Below are positions 3,931-42,892 of a stretch of 64,000 nucleotides of DNA, piece after piece. Positions within the stretch are counted from its first letter, which is position 1. Every line of letters starts with the position of its first letter. The DNA is from an uncultured Bacteroidales bacterium. Lineage in GTDB: Bacteria; Bacteroidota; Bacteroidia; Bacteroidales; GCA-2711565. Location: contig CALOCL010000041.1 in assembly GCA_942491855.1 (NCBI GenBank), forward strand, positions 81,024-145,023, given 5' to 3'. Position numbers and translations under genes: made by a program. The notes beneath the pieces are model-generated. The model did not search any database. It was not told where the DNA came from and saw only the letters and a list, made by a program, of their open reading frames with translations.

Positions 3931-4254
3931 CTATCTTTCATCGTCATCATCTTCCTCTTCCTCGTCAATGTCTTCTTCAAGTTCAAGTTCGATGCTTTTT
4001 TTGTCAATTGCTGATGCAACTTCAGGTAATTCATCTTCTTTCTCCCAATAAAAAGATGAATCAATTTCTACCGGTACCTTTACCAGGTATGAGATGTCCT
4101 CATACTCCAGTGCTAAGGCATGAAAATACTCATTATTTCCTTTACTTATCTTAGTCGTTTCTCCTTCCCAGCCCTCAGGATATTTTTCCTGAAGGGCTTC
4201 AAGAACATCAGCTGGGAGCTTTTCGATGCTGGCAATTTTTTTGAGTTTTGTCAT
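3931..4254 (-). CDS. small acidic-tailed hypothetical protein of a Bacteroidota family
   Basis: 107 aa; KLPADVLEALQEKYPEG...YLVKV core followed by an Asp/Glu tail (ELEEDIDEEEEDDDDER). Confidence 0.75.
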   Translation of the reverse strand: MTKLKKIASIEKLPADVLEALQEKYPEGWEGETTKISKGNNEYFHALALEYEDISYLVKVPVEIDSSFYWEKEDELPEVASAIDKKSIELELEEDIDEEEEDDDDER

Positions 4255-4597
4255 GGTTTAATGGTCAGTAAACAGGCTGCAAAATAAAACAAGATTTTAA
4301 AAAATCAAATACAAAATATTTTTTTTTGAGGCTTGAAATCAAATATTTTTTAATATTTAAGCCTGCCTTGAAAATAATAAAGGAATTTTGATCAATCGTT
4401 CATTAAGTAGAATTTATCTGAATTCTGATTCTTGAATTTAAGATAGGCCTTAAAACAGCTTTTTCACAAAGAGCCATTCTTTTGTAAAAAAAACAATCGA
4501 GTATTCATCATTCATAAAATAAAGGGGTAAAATTACCTTCAAACATGATTGGCGGTTGACTGTTAATTTCGTATAAAAAATGTAAGTTTGCAGTTAA

Positions 4598-5428
4598 ATG
4601 AAAGTGATTAAAAATACCAAAAGCAGGTTTCGAGATATCAGCATCTTTTTAATCATTCTGCTTACCACGACTTACTTATTGCCGCAAACTTCCGAAAATG
4701 ATACTTGGATTGTTCTGCCGACAAAACTTAATCCGTATAAATCGAGTGACTTGATTAGCAAGGTGAGTGACATTAAGCTTAAGTACCCTCAGGAAGTGCA
4801 AGGTAAATTACTCGGAGATGAACAGTTTGGTACTGTAAAAATTCTAGTAAACAAAAAGAAGTATTATCTGCCAGTTCGTTTATTACTAAAAAAAACCTTA
4901 AATCTATTCGATCAAAAAAACATCCCGATAGGGCAAGAAATTGTGGATATTAAAATCCCATTGCCACCCAATTACAAACCCAATGATTTGGTGAAAATTG
5001 ATCAGAAATGGAATTATCATGCAGCCGATTATTCCAAATTTTTAAGAATAGATGCTTCAATTGCCCTCGAAAAAATGTTTAGAGAAGCAAAAAAACAAGG
5101 CTTATCCTTAAAAGTTGTTTCTGCATTTCGTGCATTTAAGAAACAGCGTCAACTTTATTTAAGAGCCATTAAAAAAAATGGAATTAATCAAAATGTGGTG
5201 GCAAAGCCTGGCCATAGTGAGCACCAATTGGGGACTACTGTTGATGTCAGTTCTTTTTCTTCCAAATCTGTCTTAAATCAAAGTTTTGCTGATACCAAGG
5301 AAGGAAAATGGATGCAGGAAAATGCGAGTAAATACGGATTTTATCAATCCTACACCATCGCAAATTCTGAAGTTACGGGATACATTCCCGAACCCTGGCA
5401 TTTTCGATTTATTGGCTCCTCAAAATAG
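4598..5428 (+). CDS. M15B (VanY-like) D-alanyl-D-alanine carboxypeptidase with N-terminal signal/anchor
   Basis: SAFR, PGHSEHQLG and EPWHFRF zinc-peptidase motifs; hydrophobic N-terminus; promoter TAAGTTTG at 4583-4590. Confidence 0.9.
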   Translation: MKVIKNTKSRFRDISIFLIILLTTTYLLPQTSENDTWIVLPTKLNPYKSSDLISKVSDIKLKYPQEVQGKLLGDEQFGTVKILVNKKKYYLPVRLLLKKTLNLFDQKNIPIGQEIVDIKIPLPPNYKPNDLVKIDQKWNYHAADYSKFLRIDASIALEKMFREAKKQGLSLKVVSAFRAFKKQRQLYLRAIKKNGINQNVVAKPGHSEHQLGTTVDVSSFSSKSVLNQSFADTKEGKWMQENASKYGFYQSYTIANSEVTGYIPEPWHFRFIGSSK

Positions 5429-19465: not shown

Positions 19466-22389
19466 ATGCTCCTAAACTGCCATACCTATTTCTCTTATAA
19501 ATTCGGTACGCTCTCCATTGAGGAGTTGATTGAGGAGGGCGTAAGCAAAGATTTTGAAGAGTTATGTTTAACTGACATCAACAGTACTTCTGCTGTCTTC
19601 GATTTTATCCGCTTAGGTAAAGCGAAAGGAATCAGGCCTGTCATCGGTATCGATTTCAGAAATGGTGTTGATCAAAAATACATTGGCATTGCCAGAAATA
19701 ATGAAGGTTTCAGAGAATTAAATGAACACCTTACATTCCACTCACATCAAGAAATTGATTTTGAGAATAAAGCTCCTGAATTTGAAAATTCTTTTGTGAT
19801 TTATCCTTTTGATGCGAAACTAATCCGGCAACTAAAAGAAAATGAATTTATCGGAATCAAACCCTGGGAGTTGAACCAACTTTTGCGATCGGTCTGGGAA
19901 AATAAGCCTGATAAATTGGTCATTTTAAATCCTGTAACATTTCGTTACCAACGCGATTTTAATGTTCATCGATTACTGAGAACCATTGACAAAAAATACC
20001 TTTCTTTCGCAATTGTCGACCGGTGGGAGGGGGAATCCTCTGGAGATTTGCGTGGGGGGGGTGTGCACCTTTGTGTTTGGGGAAAGGTATCCACAACTCA
20101 TTCAAAAACCAAGTTTTTGTGAAGAGCAGCGTTGGGTTGATAGGATTGTTCAAAAAAAAAGCCACTTATACGGGTACACGTTCTACGGATTTTGAACTTC
20201 ACAAAAGAAGTGAAAGAGCAGGATTTGGAAAAGCATCCACTGCGGTTCGTGACCGAATTAATACCGAATTAAAAGTGATTAAGGATTTGGACTTTTGTTC
20301 TTATTTTTTAATTAATTGGGATTTGGTGAAATTCGCTCGGGAACAGGGTTTTCACTACGTAGGCCGAGGGAGCGGAGCAAACAGCATGCTGGCCTACCTG
20401 CTCCGAATCACCGATGTAGACCCCATCGAACTGGATTTGTATTTTGAGCGATTTATCAACCCCTCACGAAGCAGTCCGCCTGATTTCGATTTAGATTTTG
20501 CTTCCCGAGAACGGGACACGGTTACCAAGTATATTTTTGATCGACATGGCTGGGATCACACGGCTTTAGTTGGTTCTTACAATACTTTTCAGTACAGATC
20601 CATGATTCGGGAACTGGGTAAAGTATTCGGTCTGCCTCCTGAAGAAATTGATGAATTGCAAGCCAATAAAGCCCGTAAAGATTTGGATCATATCGGGAAA
20701 TTGGTCCTGTCTTACGGACAACTGATCAAAGATTTTCCAAGTCATTTAAGCGTGCATTCCAGCGGAATCTTAATTTCTGAAGAACCCATCTCGGCATACA
20801 GTGCCACTATCATGCCGCCAAAAGGTTTTCCGACTACTCACTTTAGTATGCTTGAAGCTGAGGATATTGGTTTGGCTAAATTTGACATACTTGGTCAGAG
20901 AGGAATTAGCAAGATCAAGGATACGGTTGATATGGTTTCGGAGCGGCAAAAAATCAATATCGACATCCATCAACTCGAGCAATTTAAAAAGGATAAAAAA
21001 GTTCGATCACTCTTAAAACAAGGCATGGCCATTGGTTGTTTTTACATCGAATCGCCTGCTATGCGGATGTTGCTCAAAAAGCTGGAGGCTGAGGATTACC
21101 TGAGATTGGTCGCAGCAAGTTCTATCATCCGTCCCGGTGTGGCTAAAAGTGGTATGATGCGTGAATACATCTTAAGGTACCGTGATCCGGCCAGGAGGGA
21201 AGAAGCAAGAAAAGCTTTACCCGAGCTTTACAAATTACTGGAAGAAACCTACGGGGTGATGGTTTATCAGGAGGATGTGATTAAAGTAGCGCATCTTTTT
21301 GCAAATTTAACTTTGGCCGAAGCGGATGTTTTGCGAAGAGGCATGTCGTGGAAGTTTAAGCAGCGCAATGAGTTTCACAAAGTGAGAGAGAAGTTTTTTG
21401 AGAACTGTCATTTAAAAGGCTATCGAAATGAAACCATTCAAGCCATCTGGGATCAAATTGAAAGTTTTGCAAACTATGCTTTTTCAAAGGGGCATTCAGC
21501 CTCATACGCCGTTGAAAGCTTTCAGGCACTTTATTTGAAAGCCTATCATCCGCTTGAATACATGACAGCCACTGTGAACAATGGCGGCGGTTTTTACCAT
21601 GCCGAACTTTATTTGCATGAAGCCAGAATGCACGGAGCTGAAATTGAAGCACCCTGCATTAATCGAGGTGATGGGCCTTGTTTGTTAATTGGTAAGCAGA
21701 TTTTTATTGGTTTTGCATTCATCAAAAATTTTGAAAGCAATAGCATTCGAAATATTTTAAGGGAGCAGCAAAATGGAAAATTTACTTCACTTGAAGGATT
21801 TATCAAAAGGGTTGCCATTAGTCTGGAGCAGTTAATCATTTTGATAAAAGTGGGAGCATTTCGATCCATAAATCCCAATAAAAAAGAATTGCTCTGGGAA
21901 GCACACCTTCATCTTTCAAAAGGTAAAAAATCAAAACCTTCAAAGCAATTATTTGATGAACATGCCAAACGATACAAATTACCGGATCTTACCCATAACC
22001 CCATCGAAGATGCTTTTGATGAAATTGAACTGCTGGGTTATCCTGTTAAAACATCTCCTTTTGATTTACTGATTGAGAAACCAGACATTAAAATAAGAGC
22101 TAAGGATTTGGAATCAAGAATAGGGAAGCAGGTTGAAATTTTAGGCTACCTCGTTCACGTTAAAGGAACCATGACTGGTGAGGGCAAACGCATGAGCTTT
22201 GGCGTATTTACCGATTTGGATGGTCATTGGATTGATACGGTTCAGTTCCCAAACACAGCACGTCAGTATCCTTTTCAAGGTCGGGGTTGTTATGCTTTAA
22301 AAGGAAAGGTAGTTGAAGAATTCGGTTTTATCAGCATAGAAGTTAGCTACCATAAACGCTTAATCAATTTAAATATTGAGGATGTTTAG
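19466..22389 (+). CDS. dnaE: short second-copy DNA polymerase III alpha (DnaE2-like), with a garbled, multiply frameshifted segment at about 19990-20240
   Basis: PHP domain (LNCHTYFS...TDINST), GRGSGANS, LYFERF, PPDFDLDF, KFDILGQRG, YAFSKGHSASY and a C-terminal OB fold. The total span is about 975 codons, split over three frames. Confidence 0.85.
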
Positions 22390-29173: not shown

Positions 29174-30316
29174 ATGAAAATGTTTGATGTTTATCCACGA
29201 TACCCAATAAATATTGTTAAATCGCAAGGAGTTTATTTATGGGATGATCAGGGCCAAAAATACCTTGATTTATATGGAGGCCATGGCGCGATTTCCATTG
29301 GTCATTCCCAACCGGCTTTTAAGTCGGCCATCCGAAGGCAAATGAATAAGATTGGCTTTTATTCAAACTCCATTGAGATGCCAATACAGCAGGCCTATGC
29401 GAATAAACTTGCCGCATTGAGCTCATACGATAGCTACCGCTTGTTTTTGTGCAATTCAGGAACGGAGGCCAACGAAAATGCCTTAAAACTTGCATCTTTC
29501 CATACTGGGAAATCTCGTGTAATTGCTTTTAAAAATAGTTTTCATGGAAGAACTGCGGCATCATTAAACATAACAGATCAGGCAAATATTTCTGCACCGA
29601 TCAATCAACCGCAATTTCCTGTCGATTTTATTGATTTAAACAATACTAAGCAGTTAAAAGAAACTTTAAAGCAAAACGATATTTGTGCGGTGATTATGGA
29701 AGGCATTCAAGGGGTAGGTGGGTTGGATATGCCCACAAAATCATACCTTAAGTTACTTTCGGAGCTATGTATTGAAAAAGGAATTTTGCTCATTCTGGAT
29801 GAAATTCAAAGTGGATTTGGCAGAAGTGGAAAATTCTTCGCTCATCAACATTTTGATATCAAAGCCGATATCATCACGATGGCAAAAGGAATGGGAAATG
29901 GATTTCCAATCGGAGGTGTACTCATTAATCCGGCCATCCAAGCCAAACATGGAATGCTGGGAACTACTTTCGGGGGTAATCACTTAGCTTGTGCAGCATC
30001 TATGTCGGTTGTTACGGTCATGCAAAAAGAAAGCCTGATTGCAAATGCCGACAAAATTGGAAAGCACCTGGTTAAAGATTTAAAGAAAATTCCTAACATT
30101 AAACAGATTAAAGGAAAAGGTTTGATGCTTGGTGTGGAACTTAATATTCCGGCTAAACCTATCCGGGATAAACTACTGAAAGATCATTTTATTTTTACAG
30201 GAGCATCTGCAAATCCAAACTTGCTTAGAATTTTGCCCCCATTGTCAATTACCCCTGAAGAAATAAACATATTCCCAAAAGCCTTGGATTCGGTTCTAAA
30301 ATCAATGGAAGTTTAA
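29174..30316 (+). CDS. argD: acetylornithine aminotransferase
   Basis: NSGTEANE, SFHGRT, DEIQSGFGRSG, TMAKGMGNG (PLP Lys), GTTFGGN. Confidence 0.92.
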   Translation: MKMFDVYPRYPINIVKSQGVYLWDDQGQKYLDLYGGHGAISIGHSQPAFKSAIRRQMNKIGFYSNSIEMPIQQAYANKLAALSSYDSYRLFLCNSGTEANENALKLASFHTGKSRVIAFKNSFHGRTAASLNITDQANISAPINQPQFPVDFIDLNNTKQLKETLKQNDICAVIMEGIQGVGGLDMPTKSYLKLLSELCIEKGILLILDEIQSGFGRSGKFFAHQHFDIKADIITMAKGMGNGFPIGGVLINPAIQAKHGMLGTTFGGNHLACAASMSVVTVMQKESLIANADKIGKHLVKDLKKIPNIKQIKGKGLMLGVELNIPAKPIRDKLLKDHFIFTGASANPNLLRILPPLSITPEEINIFPKALDSVLKSMEV

Positions 30317-30318
30317 AG

Positions 30319-31101
30319 ATGAAAGAACAATTAGACATCATTAAGATTGGAGGAAATATTATCGACAATGAATATTCGCTGGATGCAGCACTGGAGAATT
30401 TCGCTCAAAACAAAAACCGTAAAATTCTGGTTCATGGAGGTGGCAAAATGGCAACCCGCTTTAGTCAAAAATTGGGGATAAAATCCAATTTGGTGAATGG
30501 GAGGAGGATTACTTCGGATGAAGATTTGGAATTAGTTACCATGGTTTATGCAGGCCTCATCAACAAGAAAATTGTTGCAAAACTGCAAGCATTAAGTTGC
30601 AATGCCATTGGACTTTCCGGCTGTGATGGTGGAAGTATTTTAGCCGAAAAACGTCAGCACTCCGACATTGATTATGGATTTGTAGGCGATATTGGATTTG
30701 TTAATTCAGCGCAAATCGACACGCTAATTACCAATGGTTTTTATCCAGTTTTTTCAGCGATAACCCATGATGGAAAAGGGCAATTACTCAACACGAATGC
30801 CGACACCATTGCGGCCAAACTGTCCATTGCATTTGCTCAAATTTATGAAGTACGTCTGCTTTATTGCTTCGAAAAGGATGGAGTTTTATCTGATCCAGGC
30901 GATGAATTCTCAGTAATTCCATTCTTTGATGAATCCTACTTCAAAGAGTTAAAAATGAATGGTTTTATCAGTGAGGGCATGATTCCAAAATTGGACAATT
31001 GTTTTGATGCCCTTGAACAAGGAGTTTTGGAAGTATTCATCGGCAATTCAGACATCATTAATAACAAAGCACAAAACTTTACTAAACTCACACTAAAATG
31101 A
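30319..31101 (+). CDS. argB: acetylglutamate kinase
   Basis: KIGGN, VHGGG, GRRIT, LLNTNADT, GMIPKL. Confidence 0.95.
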   Translation: MKEQLDIIKIGGNIIDNEYSLDAALENFAQNKNRKILVHGGGKMATRFSQKLGIKSNLVNGRRITSDEDLELVTMVYAGLINKKIVAKLQALSCNAIGLSGCDGGSILAEKRQHSDIDYGFVGDIGFVNSAQIDTLITNGFYPVFSAITHDGKGQLLNTNADTIAAKLSIAFAQIYEVRLLYCFEKDGVLSDPGDEFSVIPFFDESYFKELKMNGFISEGMIPKLDNCFDALEQGVLEVFIGNSDIINNKAQNFTKLTLK

Positions 31102-32159
31102 ATACGATCAAACTTAAAGATGACTCGATTAAACTGCTCAGGAGTCTGATCAAAATCTCTTCATTTTCGGGAGAGGAAGACAGAACAAAAGCTCAACTTA
31201 AATCCTTTTTAGAAAAAAGAAAGATTAAGGTTTTTGAAAGCAAGAATAATATTTGGGCATCTAACAAGCATTTTTCTGTGAATAAGCCAACAATACTGTT
31301 GAACTCTCATCACGATACTGTTAGGCCAAATGAGGGCTATACCAGAGATCCGTTTGACGCAAAAATAGAGAATGCTAAACTGTTTGGTTTAGGAAGTAAT
31401 GATGCCGGTGCCAGTTTGGTTTCTCTGCTTGCATTGTTCCTGTTTTTCTACGAACGTGATGATTTAAATTTCAATTTGCTTTATGCCGCAACTGCTGAAG
31501 AGGAAAGCTCGGGGCTAAATGGCTTAAACAGCATCCTTCAATATTTACCAAAAATTGATTTTGCAGTGGTGGGCGAACCTACTGAAATGCAGTTGGCCAT
31601 TGCTGAAAAAGGATTGTTAGTGATAGATGCAGTTGCACCTGGGATCGCTGGGCACGCAGCCCACACCAATACCGAAAATGCGATTTACAATGCCGTTAAA
31701 GATATTGATTGGATTCGAAATTATGAATTTTCAAAAATTTCAGAATCACTCGGAAAGGTTAAAATGACGGTGACCCACATTATTGCAGGCCAAGCGCATA
31801 ACGTAGTTCCGGGTGAATGTAAATTTGTGATTGATGTGAGGGTTACGGATCAATACACCAATCAGGAAGTTTTTGAGATCATCGATAAAAATACCATGAG
31901 CAATGTAAAAGCCCGTTCCTTCAATTTAAATTCATCTTCCATTGATCCAAATCATGCCATAGTAAGGGCAGGAGTGGAGCTAGGACGAAAAACTTATGGT
32001 TCACCAACTTTATCTGACCAGTCAGTTTTAAATTGTCCATCTTTAAAGCTTGGACCGGGTAAGTCAACACGTTCGCATCAGGCTAATGAATTTATAAAAC
32101 TCGATGAGATTGATGAAGCCATTGATCTTTACATAAAAATATTTGAAAAAATTCTTTAA
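31098..32159 (+). CDS. M20 deacylase (ArgE-like: acetylornithine or acylcitrulline deacylase)
   Basis: NSHHDTV, GSNDAG, AEEE, GEPT, GHAAH, SHQANE; lies within the arg operon. Confidence 0.85.
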   Translation: MNTIKLKDDSIKLLRSLIKISSFSGEEDRTKAQLKSFLEKRKIKVFESKNNIWASNKHFSVNKPTILLNSHHDTVRPNEGYTRDPFDAKIENAKLFGLGSNDAGASLVSLLALFLFFYERDDLNFNLLYAATAEEESSGLNGLNSILQYLPKIDFAVVGEPTEMQLAIAEKGLLVIDAVAPGIAGHAAHTNTENAIYNAVKDIDWIRNYEFSKISESLGKVKMTVTHIIAGQAHNVVPGECKFVIDVRVTDQYTNQEVFEIIDKNTMSNVKARSFNLNSSSIDPNHAIVRAGVELGRKTYGSPTLSDQSVLNCPSLKLGPGKSTRSHQANEFIKLDEIDEAIDLYIKIFEKIL

Positions 32160-32169
32160 ATCTATAAAA

Positions 32170-33453
32170 ATGAAACTTTGGGATAAGGGGTTTAGCACCC
32201 ATCAAAAAATAGAAAAATTCACAGTTGGTAATGATCGGGGTTTGGATTTAAAACTGGCAAAGTACGACATTGAAGCAAGTATTGCACATGCTAAAATGCT
32301 AGCTAAAATTAATATCCTTAATGAAAAAGAAATCGAACTCATTCTTGGTGGTTTAAACAAAATTGGCGAAAACATTGAAAAAGGTTCATTTAAAATTGAA
32401 GATGACTTTGAGGATGTACACAGCAAAATTGAATTTGAATTGATTAATCTGATAGGAGAGACCGCAAAAAAAATTCATACGGCACGCTCTCGGAATGATC
32501 AGGTTTTAGTGGATCTCCATTTGTATGCAAAAAATGAGATCGGTGAAATCAAACAACTAATTGAGCAGCTTTTCAATACGTTGTTAGCATTGAGCGAAAA
32601 ACATAAGGATGTTTTAATGCCTGGTTACACCCACCTTCAAGTGGCTATGCCTTCTTCGTTTGGACTGTGGTTTTCTGCCTATGCGGAATGTTTAATCGAT
32701 GATGTAATCATGCTTGAGGCCGCCTTTAAAATAGCAGATCAAAACCCCTTGGGTTCAGCGGCTGGCTATGGAAGTTCATTCCCTATCGATCGAGAAATGA
32801 CAACAAATCTACTTGGTTTTGAAACCATGAAGTATAACTCGATAGCTGCGCAAATGAGCAGGGGGAAGCTTGAAAAATCCTTATCCTTTGCATTGGCTTC
32901 TGTTGCATCAACCTTATCAAAATTTGCCATGGATGTTTGTTTGTACAATAGCCAGAACTTTAATTTTATAAGCTTCCCCAAGGAATTAACAACGGGTTCA
33001 AGCATTATGCCCCATAAACAAAATCCAGATGTGTTTGAATTGTTAAGGGCCAGTTTCAATAAAATTCAAGCCTTGCCAAATCAAATTACACTCATCACCA
33101 ACAATCTTCCATCGGGTTATCATCGCGATTTTCAACTTTTAAAAGAAGAATTAATCAATGGAATTGATTCAATGAAAGATAATTTAGAGATTTTTAATTT
33201 CATGATTAGACAAGTGATTGTTAATCAAAATATTATGTCTGATCCGATTTATGATAATATTTACAGCGTAGAGGAAGTAAATAAGTTAGTGATGAAGGGA
33301 CAAAGTTTTAGAGATGCTTACAAAGAAGTAGGAAAGAAAATTGCGGGAGGTGACTACAAACCTGACAAAAAATTGCAACATACCCACGAAGGAAGCATTG
33401 GAAATTTAGGTCTTGCAAAAATCCACCAAAAATTTAACCGACACTTTTGTTAG
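32170..33453 (+). CDS. argH: argininosuccinate lyase
   Basis: KLWDKG, IHTARSRNDQV, PGYTHLQ, TTGSSIMPHKQNPD, SGYHRD; ATG 32170 preferred. Confidence 0.96.
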   Translation: MKLWDKGFSTHQKIEKFTVGNDRGLDLKLAKYDIEASIAHAKMLAKINILNEKEIELILGGLNKIGENIEKGSFKIEDDFEDVHSKIEFELINLIGETAKKIHTARSRNDQVLVDLHLYAKNEIGEIKQLIEQLFNTLLALSEKHKDVLMPGYTHLQVAMPSSFGLWFSAYAECLIDDVIMLEAAFKIADQNPLGSAAGYGSSFPIDREMTTNLLGFETMKYNSIAAQMSRGKLEKSLSFALASVASTLSKFAMDVCLYNSQNFNFISFPKELTTGSSIMPHKQNPDVFELLRASFNKIQALPNQITLITNNLPSGYHRDFQLLKEELINGIDSMKDNLEIFNFMIRQVIVNQNIMSDPIYDNIYSVEEVNKLVMKGQSFRDAYKEVGKKIAGGDYKPDKKLQHTHEGSIGNLGLAKIHQKFNRHFC

Positions 33454-33487: not shown

Positions 33488-34168
33488 TCATGGATCATTG
33501 CCAAGCTCATCAATTTCATTTCGATCATCAAACGAATGATTGGGCTCATCTTGATTGTTTGCTAGATCATTACTGGAAAATATCAACTTGATTTGTTGAA
33601 AAACATTCGCAACCTTTTCTAACAGCTTCTTCTGTTTCAGTTTGCGCATCCCTTCATCAAAGACTTCTACCAATCTAATTTCTTTTTTCTGAGATAAGTA
33701 CTTTGAGGTATGACTATCGCAACTATTTTGATTGAATTCAAGTGTCTCTGCATCCAGAACCAGACCTATCTGAATGTTTTTCAGAAGTTGTTCTAATTTA
33801 CTTAATGCTGAATTAATGATACAAGTCAGGCTTATGTTTGCCTGAACTCTGCCTAAATTTATTGGCTGATACTGGATTTCATTTCCTGTATCCAGCGCCA
33901 GCATCAAATTTCGATTCTCAGTACCCGGACTTGGTAAGTCTTCGAAATCTTCGGAAGATTCGTACAACACAAAATCGGTTACATCCAATAAGTATGATTT
34001 CAGTTTCTCCCACCTGGAATTAATATCAAAGGATTTTTGTGGTTGATATGAGAACTGCTGATTGCGTGATTGATCTTTAAAAAAATTCGATTTAAGTTTA
34101 TTTCTTTTTCGTAGTTCATGAATACTGATAAACTCATCGATTAAGGACTGCTCTTTCATATTTTTCAT
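33488..34168 (-). CDS. hypothetical protein, no family recognised
   Basis: 226-aa ORF divergent from 34452; no motif recognised. Confidence 0.6.
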   Translation of the reverse strand: MKNMKEQSLIDEFISIHELRKRNKLKSNFFKDQSRNQQFSYQPQKSFDINSRWEKLKSYLLDVTDFVLYESSEDFEDLPSPGTENRNLMLALDTGNEIQYQPINLGRVQANISLTCIINSALSKLEQLLKNIQIGLVLDAETLEFNQNSCDSHTSKYLSQKKEIRLVEVFDEGMRKLKQKKLLEKVANVFQQIKLIFSSNDLANNQDEPNHSFDDRNEIDELGNDP

Positions 34169-34314
34169 AACACTAAATTTTATAACTTAATACATAGCCA
34201 TCTGATACGCTATTTTTTCTTTTATCTATTGGATGGTTACAATATTACAAACCTTTACTGCCTCTAAACAAGCTTTTTAAGCCTTATCTGAGTGCTTAAA
34301 AAAATCTTTTAGTG

Positions 34315-34419
34315 ACTTAATTATGGCTACTTAAGTATTTTTGCAAGACTTAATTTAGGTAGAGTTCATGACTTAATTAAATTGATATTTTAACTTAATT
34401 ATATCTTTATCACTTAATT
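34315..34419 (+). repeat. array of ACTTAATT direct repeats (operator/iteron-like)
   Basis: Exact ACTTAATT at 34315, 34348, 34371, 34393 and 34412; palindromic variant TACTTAAGTA at 34328-34337; a further ACTTAAT at 34185. Confidence 0.85.
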
Positions 34420-34451
34420 AATTACTATATTTGATTAAAAATTTCCTTACG

Positions 34452-35612
34452 ATGAATTATCGTTATACTTTTACCGGTCATGATTTTGAAAGCATTTTAC
34501 AAAATGCTGATCTGATTGTACCCGGTATTCAGAAGATGATTGCGATATACAAACCAATAGAAGGTCATGAAATTAAGGCCATCTTACAAAACCGGCCGGA
34601 TCGTTCTCAAGAAATTGAACCACTAAACATCATCGATCAGAAAGCCAGAATAAGCGAACTCCGAAAAATAAAAAAACGCTGCGATTGGTTAAGTGAAGAG
34701 GAACTTGGAATCGAAAAAGGACCTTCGTTCAGTAAGGAGGTAAATATTTTTGATGAGCTTAAGAAATACGTTCTGATACTGAGGTTTAAAAATGAATACG
34801 ATGATCTGAGCGATTTGCTGATAATTTATCTGAATTCAAACCAAGGAAATTATGGGCTAAGCCTATCGAATAAAGCACTGGCCAGCGCACAGAAAAGCAT
34901 TATTGAGTTCCACATGTTTAACAGCATCAACGCTTTTTTGATAACCAACCGTCAAAACAGAAGCATTCAACAAAGGATCAATGCCGATACCGAAGCGCTC
35001 ATTCAGGAAAACAGAAAGCTAAAAGATCAGCTTAAACGAAGCGAATCGATTAATCTTGAAAGTCTGAAAAATTTGGCAAATCAATACTGCCGGGAATTAT
35101 CGACTCGCAACCAAAAAATTTACAAGCTCACCGATCTGGCTTTCGAAAAAGTCCAAAGCTTTGAGGGAAATATAAACCACTTGTTTAGTATCATTAAAAA
35201 TGCGGTCATCTATGCTGAAAACATAAGTCAACAAGAGCAAGCGGAAATTTTTTACATCGATGATTGGCATATTAATCTCACTCATTACGAGGAATCTGAA
35301 GTTGATGAGATTGTTGTTCAATCCTTTACAGAGCAAAAATATGCCAATACGATTGCGCTACTAAACAGACTTGAAAATGGAGCAAAGCTGGTTTTAAGCA
35401 AAAACGAAAAATTAACCGGAGTTAATGTTGGCCTGGCCTGTGAAAGACCCATGAAGGCTCCGGGAATCACAGATGCACTTAAAAATCACAGTTCAAAAAT
35501 TCTAACACTTTTTCAAAAATATCCGAATAAGTGGGATACTATCCGTAATCATTTTACCCCTGTTAAAAATCTCATCATCTCATCCTTTAAGGATGACCAA
35601 CTTAGTGCATAG
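34452..35612 (+). CDS. hypothetical protein with coiled coil, AAA+-lid-like segment and possible C-terminal HTH
   Basis: Coiled coil (EALIQENRKLKDQLKRSE); YKLTDLAFEKVQSFEGNINHLFSIIKNAV resembles the enhancer-binding-protein lid motif (ALxxL..W.GNxREL.N...A); no Walker motifs. Promoter TATATTTG at 34426-34433 favours ATG 34452. Confidence 0.6.
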   Translation: MNYRYTFTGHDFESILQNADLIVPGIQKMIAIYKPIEGHEIKAILQNRPDRSQEIEPLNIIDQKARISELRKIKKRCDWLSEEELGIEKGPSFSKEVNIFDELKKYVLILRFKNEYDDLSDLLIIYLNSNQGNYGLSLSNKALASAQKSIIEFHMFNSINAFLITNRQNRSIQQRINADTEALIQENRKLKDQLKRSESINLESLKNLANQYCRELSTRNQKIYKLTDLAFEKVQSFEGNINHLFSIIKNAVIYAENISQQEQAEIFYIDDWHINLTHYEESEVDEIVVQSFTEQKYANTIALLNRLENGAKLVLSKNEKLTGVNVGLACERPMKAPGITDALKNHSSKILTLFQKYPNKWDTIRNHFTPVKNLIISSFKDDQLSA

Positions 35613-37570: not shown

Positions 37571-38725
37571 TTATTTGATCAGGTAACGTTCTTCAAGAAA
37601 ATTAATAAGGTCAATCGACTGTTCACTGAAGGATGGAAGATCATCATTTTTTACAGCGGCTTTTTGGTACAACCTGAAAAAGGCAAAAGGGTTCCGAACA
37701 ACGGTTTTTAATCTGTCCTCACCAAATTCTTTGATGATGGCATTACACATGTAAAATCCAGTTTGATGTCCGGAACGTGGAATCATCCAACTAAATCGGT
37801 TGGAAAAAATCTTTGCTGAATCCTGATGGTTGGTAATCTCAATAAATATCGAATCCATACTTTGAATCAGAGCTGGGTGCATTCTTAAATATCCTAAATA
37901 CTTTTCACCTTCTCTGGTATCTGCATAACAGCCTGGTTTAAAATATTCAATTTGCTTATTAATCTGATCTCCGATTCCTTCATTTTCAATCTGGTTCATA
38001 ATCCATATTAAGGATCTATAAGGGTCGTTATTGTTTGGAAATCTGAATTCCTTTTTCTTTTCTCGATAGTAATGAAAAGCTTCATGAGCATACAATAACT
38101 GGAAACTATAATGCTTGTCATACCCTAAATTGACCATGCAATCCATTGCCTGACTATCACGAATATCTTCAGTTTTAATAAACCTATTAAGACTAAGAAT
38201 GATTGGATCATATCCTCTTGAATCATTAAAAATGATGAAAGCTATTTTTGGGTAATCTTCGAAATCTTTCTCTGGTAAAAAGCGCGCTGATTGCTCTTTC
38301 GCAAAATTACTCAGTTCAAGTTTTTTGTAATCTTCAATTAATTGAATGAGTTCATCTTTCTGGTTTGGAATATTTTCGTATGCTTCCAAAAGTGTTGTAA
38401 CCCAAGCAGTCCAAAAGTTACCTTTACGGTCAATTCTTTTCAATAGCTCATTAATATCTTTGGTATGACCTGGCAAATAGGCTGCCCTGAAAACTTCCTG
38501 AAAGCGTGCCGGGCTTTTAAATTCCCTGCTAATTAATTCTTCATAAGCGGATGTTTGAAATAAATTACTCCATTGTGCTTCTGTTGGTTCATTCCCTGAA
38601 AGCAAAACATCCATTACTTTAAAATGTTGATAAACTGCAGTATAGTCAATGTTTTTTGAAGATGTTTGTGTGTAAATTTTTAAGCAAAAAAAAAGTGCAA
38701 TGGCGATTAAAATCTGTTTTTTCAT
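37571..38725 (-). CDS. exported putative Zn-dependent protease (DUF5700-like)
   Basis: Signal peptide; HEAFH (HExxH) and downstream NEGIGD; GHQTGFYM. Confidence 0.7.
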   Translation of the reverse strand: MKKQILIAIALFFCLKIYTQTSSKNIDYTAVYQHFKVMDVLLSGNEPTEAQWSNLFQTSAYEELISREFKSPARFQEVFRAAYLPGHTKDINELLKRIDRKGNFWTAWVTTLLEAYENIPNQKDELIQLIEDYKKLELSNFAKEQSARFLPEKDFEDYPKIAFIIFNDSRGYDPIILSLNRFIKTEDIRDSQAMDCMVNLGYDKHYSFQLLYAHEAFHYYREKKKEFRFPNNNDPYRSLIWIMNQIENEGIGDQINKQIEYFKPGCYADTREGEKYLGYLRMHPALIQSMDSIFIEITNHQDSAKIFSNRFSWMIPRSGHQTGFYMCNAIIKEFGEDRLKTVVRNPFAFFRLYQKAAVKNDDLPSFSEQSIDLINFLEERYLIK

Positions 38726-38830: not shown

Positions 38831-39040
38831 ATGACCGACGGTACAAAAAGATCGAATGTTAAAATTGGCTCAGAAGTAAAAATTGTTTTGAAAAAAGATC
38901 AACGCAGTGGAGATCTTACCCACGGTTGGGTAAAGGATCTTTTAACTAAGGCTCCTAATCACCATCATGGTATCAAGGTAAGGCTTGAGGATGGGCAAAT
39001 TGGAAGAGTGAAGGAAGTGATTGAAAATGATGAGGAGTGA
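38831..39040 (+). CDS. YwbE family protein (DUF2196)
   Basis: IVLKKDQRSG.LT.G.VKDLLTK..HHHGIKVRLEDGQIGRV signature. Confidence 0.9.
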   Translation: MTDGTKRSNVKIGSEVKIVLKKDQRSGDLTHGWVKDLLTKAPNHHHGIKVRLEDGQIGRVKEVIENDEE

Positions 39041-41837: not shown

Positions 41838-41905
41838 TTAGGTTTTTTGCTGATACAAAGAAAACAAATGAATTCAATAAGATGAACTTTTTGTGATTAA
41901 AGCTT

Positions 41906-41954
41906 TTCATCACAAGTTTATTCAGTTCATCACATAAACTCTTGGTTCATCACA
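41906..41954 (+). promoter_or_regulatory. three TTCATCACA direct repeats with 20-bp period; probable LytTR binding sites
   Basis: Exact copies at 41906, 41926 and 41946, plus an inverted near-copy at 41892-41900, in the divergent TCS/ABC intergenic region. Confidence 0.8.
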
Positions 41955-42019
41955 TATTTTTTCAAAAATAAGTAGAACAATCCATATTTGCAGCATAAAA
42001 ATACCTAAACCTAGAAAAT

Positions 42020-42892
42020 ATGAATCTGACAATTAATAATTTATCGAAGACTTATTCTAACGGCGTTCATGCTTTGAACAATGTTTCGCTAACCATTCCT
42101 AACGGACTATTCGGATTACTCGGGCCTAATGGAGCTGGCAAATCAACATTAATGAGAACCATAGCAACCCTTCAGGAAGCTGACAGTGGAAATATCATGA
42201 TGGATGATTTGAATGTGCTAGAAAACAAGCAAGAACTCAAGCAATCGCTAGGCTACCTGCCACAAGAATTTGGTTTTTATCCAAAAGATAGAGCAATTGA
42301 TTTGCTTGATCAGTTGAGTATGTTAAAAGGAATCAGTAATAAATCTGAACGCAAAGAGGTAGTTGAATACACTTTAAGGAAGGTAAATCTTTGGGATGCA
42401 CGTAAACAAAAAATTGGAACTTTCTCAGGTGGAATGAAACAACGTTTTGGCATCGCTCAAGCATTAATTGGAAATCCAAGATTATTAATTGTTGATGAAC
42501 CAACAGCAGGGCTAGACCCTAATGAAAGAAGACGATTTCATAATTTGCTGGCAGAAATAGGAACTGAAATTGTGATCATACTTTCTACTCACATTGTTGA
42601 TGATGTCAGCAATCTTTGCACAAATATGGCTATCATCAATAAGGGAAAAATTTTACTCCAAACCGATCCTTGTGAAATCATTAAAGAATTTGAAGGGAAA
42701 ATTTGGGAAATGGATATCACAGGTTTAGATGTAGCAATTATAGAAAAAGATTTTCATGTGGTTTCAACTCGTCTTTTTTCAGGAAAAAATATCGTTCGAA
42801 TATATAGTGAAACTAACCCCGGAGAAAACTATAAGCAAGCTGCTGCTATTCTTGAGGACGTCTATTTCTACACCCTGTCAACCCGATCTTAA
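42020..42892 (+). CDS. ABC transporter ATP-binding protein
   Basis: GPNGAGKST, FSGGMKQR, VDEPTAGLDP, STH. Confidence 0.95.
   Translation: MNLTINNLSKTYSNGVHALNNVSLTIPNGLFGLLGPNGAGKSTLMRTIATLQEADSGNIMMDDLNVLENKQELKQSLGYLPQEFGFYPKDRAIDLLDQLSMLKGISNKSERKEVVEYTLRKVNLWDARKQKIGTFSGGMKQRFGIAQALIGNPRLLIVDEPTAGLDPNERRRFHNLLAEIGTEIVIILSTHIVDDVSNLCTNMAIINKGKILLQTDPCEIIKEFEGKIWEMDITGLDVAIIEKDFHVVSTRLFSGKNIVRIYSETNPGENYKQAAAILEDVYFYTLSTRS

Follow-up and report, generated by a model that had tools for sequence, protein, structure and literature searches.

What are the short repeats that lie between two divergent genes of a Bacteroidales chromosome, and which protein reads them? The question is raised by a stretch of 64,000 nucleotides (nt) from an uncultured Bacteroidales bacterium (assembly GCA_942491855.1, contig CALOCL010000041.1, positions 81,024 to 145,023), referred to here as the window and numbered from its first letter. 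Between an open reading frame (ORF) of 226 amino acids (aa) on the reverse strand and one of 386 aa on the forward strand, the window carries an array of the octamer ACTTAATT. An earlier reading of the letters alone, here called the original prediction, took the array and its flanking genes for a self-contained DNA-binding module in which the 386-aa protein binds the repeats. The comparisons described below indicate that the array is almost certainly a functional and conserved cis-regulatory element tied to the 386-aa gene. That the product of this gene binds the array and autoregulates is the preferred reading, and it is considered rather likely.

The repeat array and its conservation across relatives

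The spacer between the two ORFs spans positions 34169-34451 (283 base pairs (bp), 24% GC). Five exact copies of ACTTAATT lie on its forward strand, at 34315, 34348, 34371, 34393 and 34412, and both their number and their coordinates agree with the original prediction. The spacer also contains ACTTAAGT at 34329, enclosed by the palindrome TACTTAAGTA, as well as ACTTAATA at 34185, GCTTAAAA at 34294 and a reverse TTAAGC at 34277. The palindromic variant and the copy at 34185 had likewise been described beforehand.

The local clustering of ACTTAATT in the spacer is significant and goes beyond chance. Over the 64 kb of the window the octamer is not enriched (11 matches vs 6.5 expected), and the six occurrences outside the array are scattered singles at chance level. 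Within the spacer, five or more non-overlapping copies of any 8-mer arose in only 2 of 20,000 simulations under an order-1 Markov model and in 10 of 20,000 under an order-2 model. Both models were trained on the spacer itself, at 24% GC and with its repeats included, which makes the comparison conservative, and AT content, which might have accounted for the octamer density, does not explain it. No 8-mer reaches more than three copies in any other 120-nt stretch of the window.

The array is preserved in related genomes. A word-index search with the 386-aa protein returned seven close homologues (67-99% identity) and one at 30%. The close homologues are syntenic: in 7 genomes, on contigs of 1-4 Mb, the order is argD-argB-argE-argH, the 226-aa gene on the reverse strand, the 386-aa gene on the forward strand and an ABC-F gene. 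This gene order, shared on contigs of up to 4 Mb, marks the locus as an ordinary chromosomal one, and the outer flanks are argH (Lyase_1) and an ABC-F ATPase, as had been recognized earlier. When the spacers of the seven syntenic loci are aligned, about eight positions carry an invariant CTTAA core, and the intervening sequence has freely diverged. All close orthologues, and most loci of the family, have a TAnnTTTG element ahead of the ATG, at a distance of 21-26 nt. The 30%-identical homologue (locus L009) lies in another neighbourhood and carries upstream ACTTAAT, GCTTAATT, GACTTAATT, ACTTAA and GCTTAA, followed by TATATTTG.

A genome scan added 56 further loci, all of them from Bacteroidales or Marinilabiliales-type organisms, including Salinivirgaceae, Prolixibacteraceae, Carboxylicivirga and many metagenome-assembled genomes (MAGs). 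Wherever upstream DNA was available, RCTTAA or CTTAAT, or the reverse complement, ranks first among the hexamers of the 260 nt that precede the start codon. This comparison covered about 52-59 loci, among them those of proteins only 20-40% identical in unrelated neighbourhoods. Indeed, the array which the original prediction expected beside homologues is present at every one examined, even at very distant ones placed elsewhere in genomic context. The motif reads R (88-96%) C T T A A t (~55%) t (~62%). Upstream of the family gene there are 34.8 sites per kb; the flanks, ~478 kb in all, have 1.52 per kb, and the latter figure is about what base frequencies lead one to expect. Groups of at least four sites within 130 nt are essentially confined, in each locus, to the region upstream of the family gene; the exceptional clusters inspected in the flanks are unphased chance groups within coding regions.

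An all-against-all comparison of neighbouring ORFs across 62 loci revealed no conserved neighbour gene. The conserved unit therefore consists of the array and the 386-aa gene. The self-contained module of the original prediction is thus upheld for these two components, and the 226-aa gene falls outside the universal unit.

Some minor observations concern the repeats and the annotation around them. Elsewhere in the window an 8-mer occurs three times within 120 nt only at ~20211-20340 and ~41841-42020 (GGATTTGG and TTCATCAC). Window positions 4726-4779 and positions 4233-4342 of locus L048 were considered as further arrays and rejected, as they lie in coding regions, are unphased and consist partly of overlapping palindromes. 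AT-rich MAG contigs of giant viruses frequently show triple ACTTAATT patterns, some of them as long tandem arrays (L071:3056-3639, L130:2243-2826 and upwards of 100 other viral contigs). A scan of viral contigs for three ACTTAATT copies gave more than 120 matches, mostly AT-rich giant-virus repeats unrelated to this array, and the bare pattern is therefore undiagnostic outside its promoter context. At L001:4918-5000, the public gene call of the orthologue P0002 (358 aa) begins 28 codons late, the true MNYRYTF start being at L001:4918, so that the annotated "intergenic" region of that locus is partly coding.

Site geometry and the two predicted promoters

Positions of forward-strand sites are given relative to the -7 box closest to the ATG, counted from its first base. 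The features of the spacer and of the divergent gene are the following, TSS denoting the transcription start site.

33488 to 34168, reverse strand: 226-aa gene, lineage-specific, fast-evolving and outside the family-wide unit
34185 to 34192, forward strand: copy ACTTAATA lying apart from the others, at a distance of 17 nt from the 226-aa start codon; present in L001, L004, L005 and L007, absent from L002 and L003
34240 to 34247, reverse strand: probable divergent -7 box, reading TAATATTG, one mismatch to TAnnTTTG, within the conserved block T.CAA.A.TA..AA of alignment A2; reverse-strand TSS predicted near 34235
34277 to 34282, reverse strand: reverse-oriented GCTTAA (TTAAGC on the forward strand), 35 nt upstream of the divergent -7 box; CAAGnnnnTTAAG kept in all orthologues
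34294 to 34301, forward strand: degenerate GCTTAAAA, at -132 from the forward -7 box; CTTAA core invariant in alignment A2
34315 to 34322, forward strand: ACTTAATT at -111; family-wide peak -111 to -113
34329 to 34336, both strands: ACTTAAGT at -97; TTAA core kept in alignment A2
34348 to 34355, forward strand: ACTTAATT at -78, in a 21-nt insertion common to L001 only; family peak -75 to -79
34371 to 34378, forward strand: ACTTAATT at -55; family peak -55 to -58
34393 to 34400, forward strand: ACTTAATT at -33 from the start of the -7 box, about -45 to -38 from the predicted TSS
34412 to 34419, forward strand: ACTTAATT at -14, within the spacer of the core promoter; relative to the predicted TSS, about -26 to -19
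34426 to 34433, forward strand: predicted sigmaA -7 box TATATTTG of the 386-aa gene; TSS predicted near 34438, leader of ~14 nt

Two TAnnTTTG elements, at 34336 and 34426, had been pointed out in the original prediction. Both are present, and conservation in orthologues is restricted to that at 34426. The second one, TATTTTTG at 34336-34343, overlaps the palindromic copy and is probably fortuitous.

Across the family, forward-strand sites accumulate at +7, -14, -33 to -35, -45/-46, -55 to -58, -66, -75 to -79, -89, -97 to -101 and -110 to -113, and the sites of the window at -14, -33, -55, -78, -97, -111 and -132 coincide with family peaks. Successive sites on the same strand are 10-12, 19-22, 30-34 or 40-43 nt apart. 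A fit to 563 site pairs, drawn from 48 non-redundant loci, gave 10.9 bp as the best period, its power of 112.5 comparing with a maximum of 15.5 in 1000 position-randomised controls; the proposal that the sites lie on roughly one face of the DNA is borne out by this family-wide period. The most position-conserved site of the forward promoter is that at -32 to -36, found in 35 of 51 loci, and a site at -12 to -16 occurs in 27 of the 51. A +7 site, which spans the predicted TSS, is present in 14 other loci.

The distal part of the array is mostly in the opposite orientation (TTAAGY), and about ten loci contain the composite palindrome ACTTAATTAAGT. The reason for this reversal seems to be a second, divergent promoter. 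In 34 of 58 loci the reverse strand carries an exact TAnnTTTG at 150-210 nt upstream of the ATG, as against ~0.055 per locus expected from base composition. Of the 41 loci with a reverse -7 box, 32 have a site of the same orientation at a distance of exactly 34 or 35 nt on its upstream side. The counterpart in the window is formed by TAATATTG (34247 to 34240) and GCTTAA (34282 to 34277), which are 35 nt apart. Since the sites are mirrored at the reverse -7 box, the array would be the shared control region of two divergent predicted promoters.

In Flavobacterium, the sigmaA -7 box lies at -12 to -5 from the TSS (PMC9723704). With this placement, a site 33-35 nt upstream of the -7 box is centred at about -42 to -44 from the predicted TSS. 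Only ~10 of 51 forward promoters carry a -33 element, TTTG at 18-22 nt from the -7 box on its upstream side, and this scarcity fits factor-dependent promoters. No -24/-12 element of the sigma54 type (TGGCAY-N5-TTGC or a looser form) was present in any of 59 upstream regions.

On the other side of the array, the partner gene varies. Searches of Pfam, PADLOC and PHROGs gave no hit for the 226-aa protein, and only eight homologues were found, in the same genomes; they are 36-66% identical vs 67-87% for the 386-aa partner. Related ORFs, some of them truncated to only 86-96 aa, stand beside more distant family members (L017, L018 and L023). Some divergent ORF lies upstream of the family gene in 46 of 56 loci. 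At other loci these are small divergent ORFs (70-130 aa) which fall into at least six further groups (at least seven in all) and which, with the exception of one pair, show no detectable mutual similarity. A small divergent ORF was considered as a universal component of the unit and was rejected, because the groups are mutually unrelated. About 17 loci have no divergent ORF of at least 40 aa, and many of them retain the reverse -7 box. As judged from these comparisons, the divergent promoter is part of the unit and its transcript is lineage-specific; likewise, the 226-aa gene is apparently a lineage-specific passenger or partner. The exceptional pair comprises two groups (from L043, L046, L051, L065 and L050-L055), located ~190-320 nt upstream of the family gene, which share the N-terminal motif MRSEFFNEIxxxRxxF / IIQQIRENRERYY. 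The hhalign probability of 53% for this pair hints that some of the lineage-specific divergent partners may be distant homologues.

The 386-aa protein and its family

In an exhaustive HMMER profile search, at least 441 cluster representatives (50% identity) were retrieved at E<=1e-3, 211 of them at E<=1e-30. Among the matches listed, most are of 365-400 aa and align end to end. The 386-aa protein is therefore no orphan. The original prediction had called both flanking genes orphans, and this is correct in so far as neither of the two proteins has a Pfam hit; it fails for the 386-aa protein, which belongs to a large unnamed family. Word-index homology searches returned only 8 and 17 relatives vs the 441 clusters found with HMMER, so that an orphan call based on them would mislead. 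Family members are labelled "hypothetical protein" in the source records, and the family model is absent from Pfam and NCBIfam (123 members were scanned against Pfam).

The conserved start is the ATG at 34452; the TTG start at 34431 given by the ORF finder is an artefact. A full-length AF2 model, built on a shallow alignment, has a pLDDT of 70 and is divided into an alpha/beta part (residues 1-130), one long helix (141-220), a small alpha/beta unit (223-269) and a helical C-terminal part (295-385). The gene and its predicted parts are the following.

34452 to 35612, forward strand: gene of the 386-aa putative regulator, start ATG at 34452, protein beginning MNYRYTF
34452 to 34841, forward strand: sensor-like alpha/beta domain, residues 1-130, in the AF2 model
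34872 to 35111, forward strand: long helix, residues 141-220, in the AF2 model
35052 to 35261, forward strand: predicted AAA+ lid of the sigma54-activator type, residues ~201-270, from profile, Pfam and Foldseek matches
residues 281-293, forward strand: disordered linker in the AF2 model
35328 to 35609, forward strand: conserved six-helix C-terminal domain, residues 293-386, carrying LTGxNVG...APGITDALKNH

The middle unit is, by profile and by model, the lid subdomain of the sigma54 activators. A profile of 123 members searched against the PDB matched NtrC1 (4bs1, E=4e-4), followed by 1ny5, 1ny6, 3m0e and 4ly6 (E ~3e-3) and, more weakly, by NtrC4, ZraR and VpsR; all these matches cover profile positions 201-255. 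In the alignment, GdieeLekiiekAv faces GNVRELKNVIERAV, and the family motif GN(I/V)xxLxxxIxxAV corresponds to GNVRELxNxIERAV. The Pfam model AAA_lid_14 was hit by 5 of the 123 members (best E 1.8e-5). The only NCBIfam matches with a common theme (NifA, PspF, AtoC, LuxO, NorR and FlgR) are weak and limited to single members. A second model, covering residues 200-386, has a pLDDT of 81, and Foldseek superposes it on the lids of ZraR, FlrC and NtrC1 with a probability of 1.00, at 2.0-2.5 A over ~80 columns, the E values being only 0.02-0.2.

The rest of the sigma54-activator ATPase is missing. The Sigma54_activat core, with its Walker A/B motifs and GAFTGA loop, was found neither in the window protein nor in the 123 family members, and the AF2 model shows a single 80-residue helix in place of the AAA+ core. 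Conservation in the family is highest over the C-terminal 94 residues, where the mean column identity is 51% vs 29% overall. They contain the near-invariant motif LTGxNVG...(S/T)APAI(S/T)DALKKHxxKI...YPxKWxxIRxxF(K/R)PxxN and a helix-loop-helix layout at 323-329 and 338-345. The matches of the N-terminal part by Foldseek are all of the sensor class (a histidine kinase periplasmic sensor domain, GAF, Cache and the LasR ligand-binding domain), with a best E of 0.02.

The comparison with bacterial enhancer-binding proteins (NtrC, NtrC1, ZraR, FlrC) is therefore instructive only in part. The lid subdomain is homologous, with folds that agree within 2.0-2.5 A, and the order of the parts is the same: an N-terminal sensor, the lid, a flexible linker and, at the C terminus, a small helical domain. 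Both act, here as a prediction, through several upstream sites. Conversely, the AAA+ alpha/beta core is absent from the 386-aa protein, which has one long helix instead; its family promoters are predicted to be of the sigmaA type, whereas enhancer-binding proteins act on -24/-12 sigma54 promoters; its C-terminal domain is not HTH_8/Fis by sequence; and its sites abut or overlap the core promoter, whereas those of enhancer-binding proteins are 80-150 bp away. As three of four defining features fail (the ATPase core, HTH_8 and the sigma54 promoter), the 386-aa protein should not be filed as an enhancer-binding protein. A Fis-type helix-turn-helix (HTH) domain, HTH_8, had been suspected in its C-terminal part from the NtrC architecture and was rejected, since PDB profile, hhalign and Pfam scan were all unsupportive.

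NtrC-lineage regulators that work at sigma70-type promoters, with no ATP-driven remodelling, are represented by VpsR and by the RegA/PrrA/ActR group. These keep a receiver and HTH_8, and VpsR also keeps the AAA+ core. The 386-aa family would resemble them as an NtrC lineage without sigma54; it differs in that receiver, HTH_8 and AAA+ core are all undetectable.

The candidate binder, the rival explanations and the wider setting

According to the preferred reading, the 386-aa protein would dimerise or oligomerise through its long central helix and its lid domain, and its C-terminal helical domain would recognise the asymmetric motif RCTTAA(tt). Protomers would be arranged head to tail on one DNA face, along a lattice of ~10.9 bp (mostly 11- or 21-22-bp steps), giving cooperative occupancy of sites that are oriented to the nearer of the two divergent sigmaA promoters. 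The site 33-35 nt upstream of each -7 box, with its centre at ~-42 to -44 from the TSS, would hold an activator-like position, and the sites in the core promoter of the gene itself (-14; +7 in other lineages) repressor-like ones. The outcome may be a concentration-dependent autoregulation together with a co-regulation of the divergent transcript, here that of the 226-aa gene, and the N-terminal sensor-like domain would presumably couple occupancy to a ligand or signal. The activator-like site near -43 at both promoters, the few -33 elements and the sites in the own core promoter together suggest that low occupancy would activate and that high occupancy would lead to self-repression; of this explanation, the sign of regulation is the least secure part.

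Four properties of the asymmetric motif speak for the product of the 386-aa gene as the binder. The motif is kept from 99% down to ~20% protein identity; it occurs essentially only upstream of the 386-aa gene; its sites are locked in phase and position to two divergent promoters; and they are oriented to the nearer one. As a set, these properties are most simply accounted for by an operator lattice to which the 386-aa protein itself would bind.

A number of results weigh against this reading. The profile of the 94 C-terminal residues found no HTH in the PDB; hhalign of the C-terminal domain with E. coli Fis gave a probability of 0.2%; a permissive Pfam scan of 60 C-terminal fragments yielded no recurrent HTH family; and Foldseek found no match for the domain among viral structures. 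That this domain is the DNA-binding part is suggested by its position, which is that seen in enhancer-binding proteins, by its helix-loop-helix layout and by a conservation that parallels that of the motif. Members in which the putative recognition helix is altered (D to W, ALKKH to MVNNN; from a metagenome scan) still carry CTTAA arrays, and the covariation of this helix with the motif does not discriminate, as the CTTAA core is constant across helix variants. The assignment of a sensor fold to the N-terminal part is weak, and the promoter and TSS positions are consensus predictions. A search of the window for sites at a distance of 33-36 nt ahead of a -7 box gave a single match outside the array, inside the 226-aa coding sequence and at about chance expectation. 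No second target, and with it no sign of a regulon, thus emerged from the 64-kb window. With these points included, binding of the array and autoregulation by the 386-aa protein are still regarded as probable.

The array might instead be a genuine operator read by some other trans-acting protein, either a global regulator or the product of the divergent gene, with the 386-aa protein as a mere target. This would accommodate the C-terminal domain that is not recognisable as a DNA-binding one, the CTTAA core that stays the same when the putative recognition helix differs, and the divergent ORF upstream in 46 of 56 loci. Such ORFs belong, however, to unrelated groups and are lacking in other loci, so that the 386-aa gene is the sole constant partner; and for a global regulator sites would be expected elsewhere, yet the flanks and the 64-kb window are at chance density and no other promoter of the window has a site 33-35 nt upstream of a -7 box. 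A different binder is thus considered unlikely. Still less probable is an array that works without any factor, by phased DNA bending or by UP-element-like contacts of RNA polymerase at both promoters. The AT-rich spacer, the helical phasing and the fixed positions relative to the -7 boxes would all suit such a role, but an invariant C and a purine at 88-96% stand out in an otherwise 78% A+T sequence, the motif is asymmetric and switches its orientation with the promoter, and it is restricted to one gene per locus and absent from promoters at large. An asymmetric, oriented motif tied to a single gene is typical of a sequence-specific protein.

The original prediction had compared the array with cooperative operators, iterons and centromere-like sites. 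The first analogy holds, since the sites are phased and placed with respect to promoters; the other two, in which the 386-aa protein would be an initiator or a centromere-binding protein, are highly improbable. Direct repeats with a spacing of ~21-22 bp next to a possibly autoregulated gene do recall iteron plasmids and their Rep proteins, in which the repeats, spaced by ~22 bp, lie upstream of an autoregulated gene. The locus is nevertheless chromosomal and syntenic in 7 genomes (argDBEH, the 226-aa gene, the 386-aa gene and ABC-F), and among 72,556 plasmids and 50,697 phages tblastn turned up no relative of the protein. Conserved neighbours of the Rep, ParA or ParB type are lacking, the flanking proteins have no Rep, ParA or ParB Pfam hits and the 386-aa protein has no Rep homology. 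The conserved core amounts merely to 6-8 bp and not to units of 17-22 bp, the sites are anchored to promoter elements, and a GC-skew switch is absent at the locus. A role at the RNA level, with ACUUAAU repeats of a 5' leader bound by an RNA-binding protein or folded into a structure, is equally improbable. The promoter-proximal copies are indeed on the same strand as the 386-aa gene, but they lie upstream of the conserved -7 box, which itself stands 21-26 nt before the ATG; the distal copies are on the other strand, palindromic composites (ACTTAATTAAGT) occur as well, and no Rfam match was obtained.

For the preferred reading, that of a protein bound to its own promoter region, several known systems offer partial parallels. 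The pho boxes of PhoB/OmpR regulators are asymmetric sites set head to tail in a phase of ~11 bp and facing the promoter, whose proximal repeat replaces the -35-type element. The array is like them in asymmetry, phase, orientation and the missing -35-type element; unlike PhoB/OmpR, the 386-aa protein has neither a receiver nor the winged-helix Trans_reg_C, and the arrays are longer than pho boxes, with 6-12 sites over 120-200 bp and two promoters. In lambda OR, located between the divergent promoters PRM and PR, CI and Cro use a cluster of operators, with one site near -42 and others in the core promoter, for cooperative and concentration-dependent autoregulation. These operators are 17-bp palindromes bound by dimers of the Xre-type HTH. 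Operators between divergent promoters, a site near -42, further sites in a core promoter and a small divergent gene are common to both systems, as a cooperative autoregulation would be, whereas here the sites are asymmetric 6-8-mers and the locus lies outside a prophage. In DnaA, an AAA+ lid is followed by a C-terminal DNA-binding domain, and short asymmetric boxes precede its own gene. The 386-aa protein is similar as a lid protein of AAA+ lineage with short asymmetric boxes before its own gene; it is unlike DnaA in its best lid matches, which are with sigma54 activators, in the absence of an ATPase core and of a Bac_DnaA_C hit, and in lacking any origin context. Nothing relevant was found in Rfam, PADLOC or PHROGs, and literature searches on the octamer and on ATPase-less enhancer-binding proteins in Bacteroidetes yielded only irrelevant papers.

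Taken together, these features can be read, tentatively and with more doubt than confidence, as a Bacteroidota-specific class of one-component regulators derived from the sigma54 activators. Such regulators would have discarded the ATPase engine, kept the lid for oligomerisation and acquired a new DNA-binding domain; a head-to-tail polymer on 6-12 phased short sites would work as a two-promoter switch, with the fast-evolving divergent gene as its second arm, for example as an anti-regulator. What appears to be new here is the unnamed regulator family, its unusual domain make-up and an operator lattice that is unusually long, strictly phased and bidirectional.

To our knowledge, the control of transcription in Bacteroidota is poorly mapped beyond the SusR, hybrid two-component and extracytoplasmic function (ECF) sigma factor paradigms. 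In this regard, an unnamed family (at least 441 clusters at 50% identity) is paired here with a precise motif, RCTTAAtt, and strict positional rules are given relative to a phylum-specific -7 promoter element. The scaffold of sigma54 activators would appear to be reusable without its ATPase, and the C-terminal domain may be a candidate for a new DNA-binding fold. The unit of ~1.4 kb, with two divergent promoters, an operator lattice and a sensor-regulator, could become a regulatory part for Bacteroidota if its signal were found. Cultured species of Carboxylicivirga and Plebeiibacterium, among them Carboxylicivirga linearis FB218, C. caseinilyticus A049 and Plebeiibacterium sediminum, carry the family, which makes the prediction directly testable.

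The genes around the unit belong to other functions. Directly upstream, window positions 29174-33453 contain a co-directional cluster for arginine biosynthesis (genes resembling acetylornithine aminotransferase, acetylglutamate kinase and an M20 deacylase, followed by argH), whose order is the same in all close relatives. Downstream of the ABC-F gene lie a putative zinc peptidase of the DUF5700 type (37571-38725) and a small gene of the DUF2196 type (38831-39040), the presence and order of which are variable among relatives.

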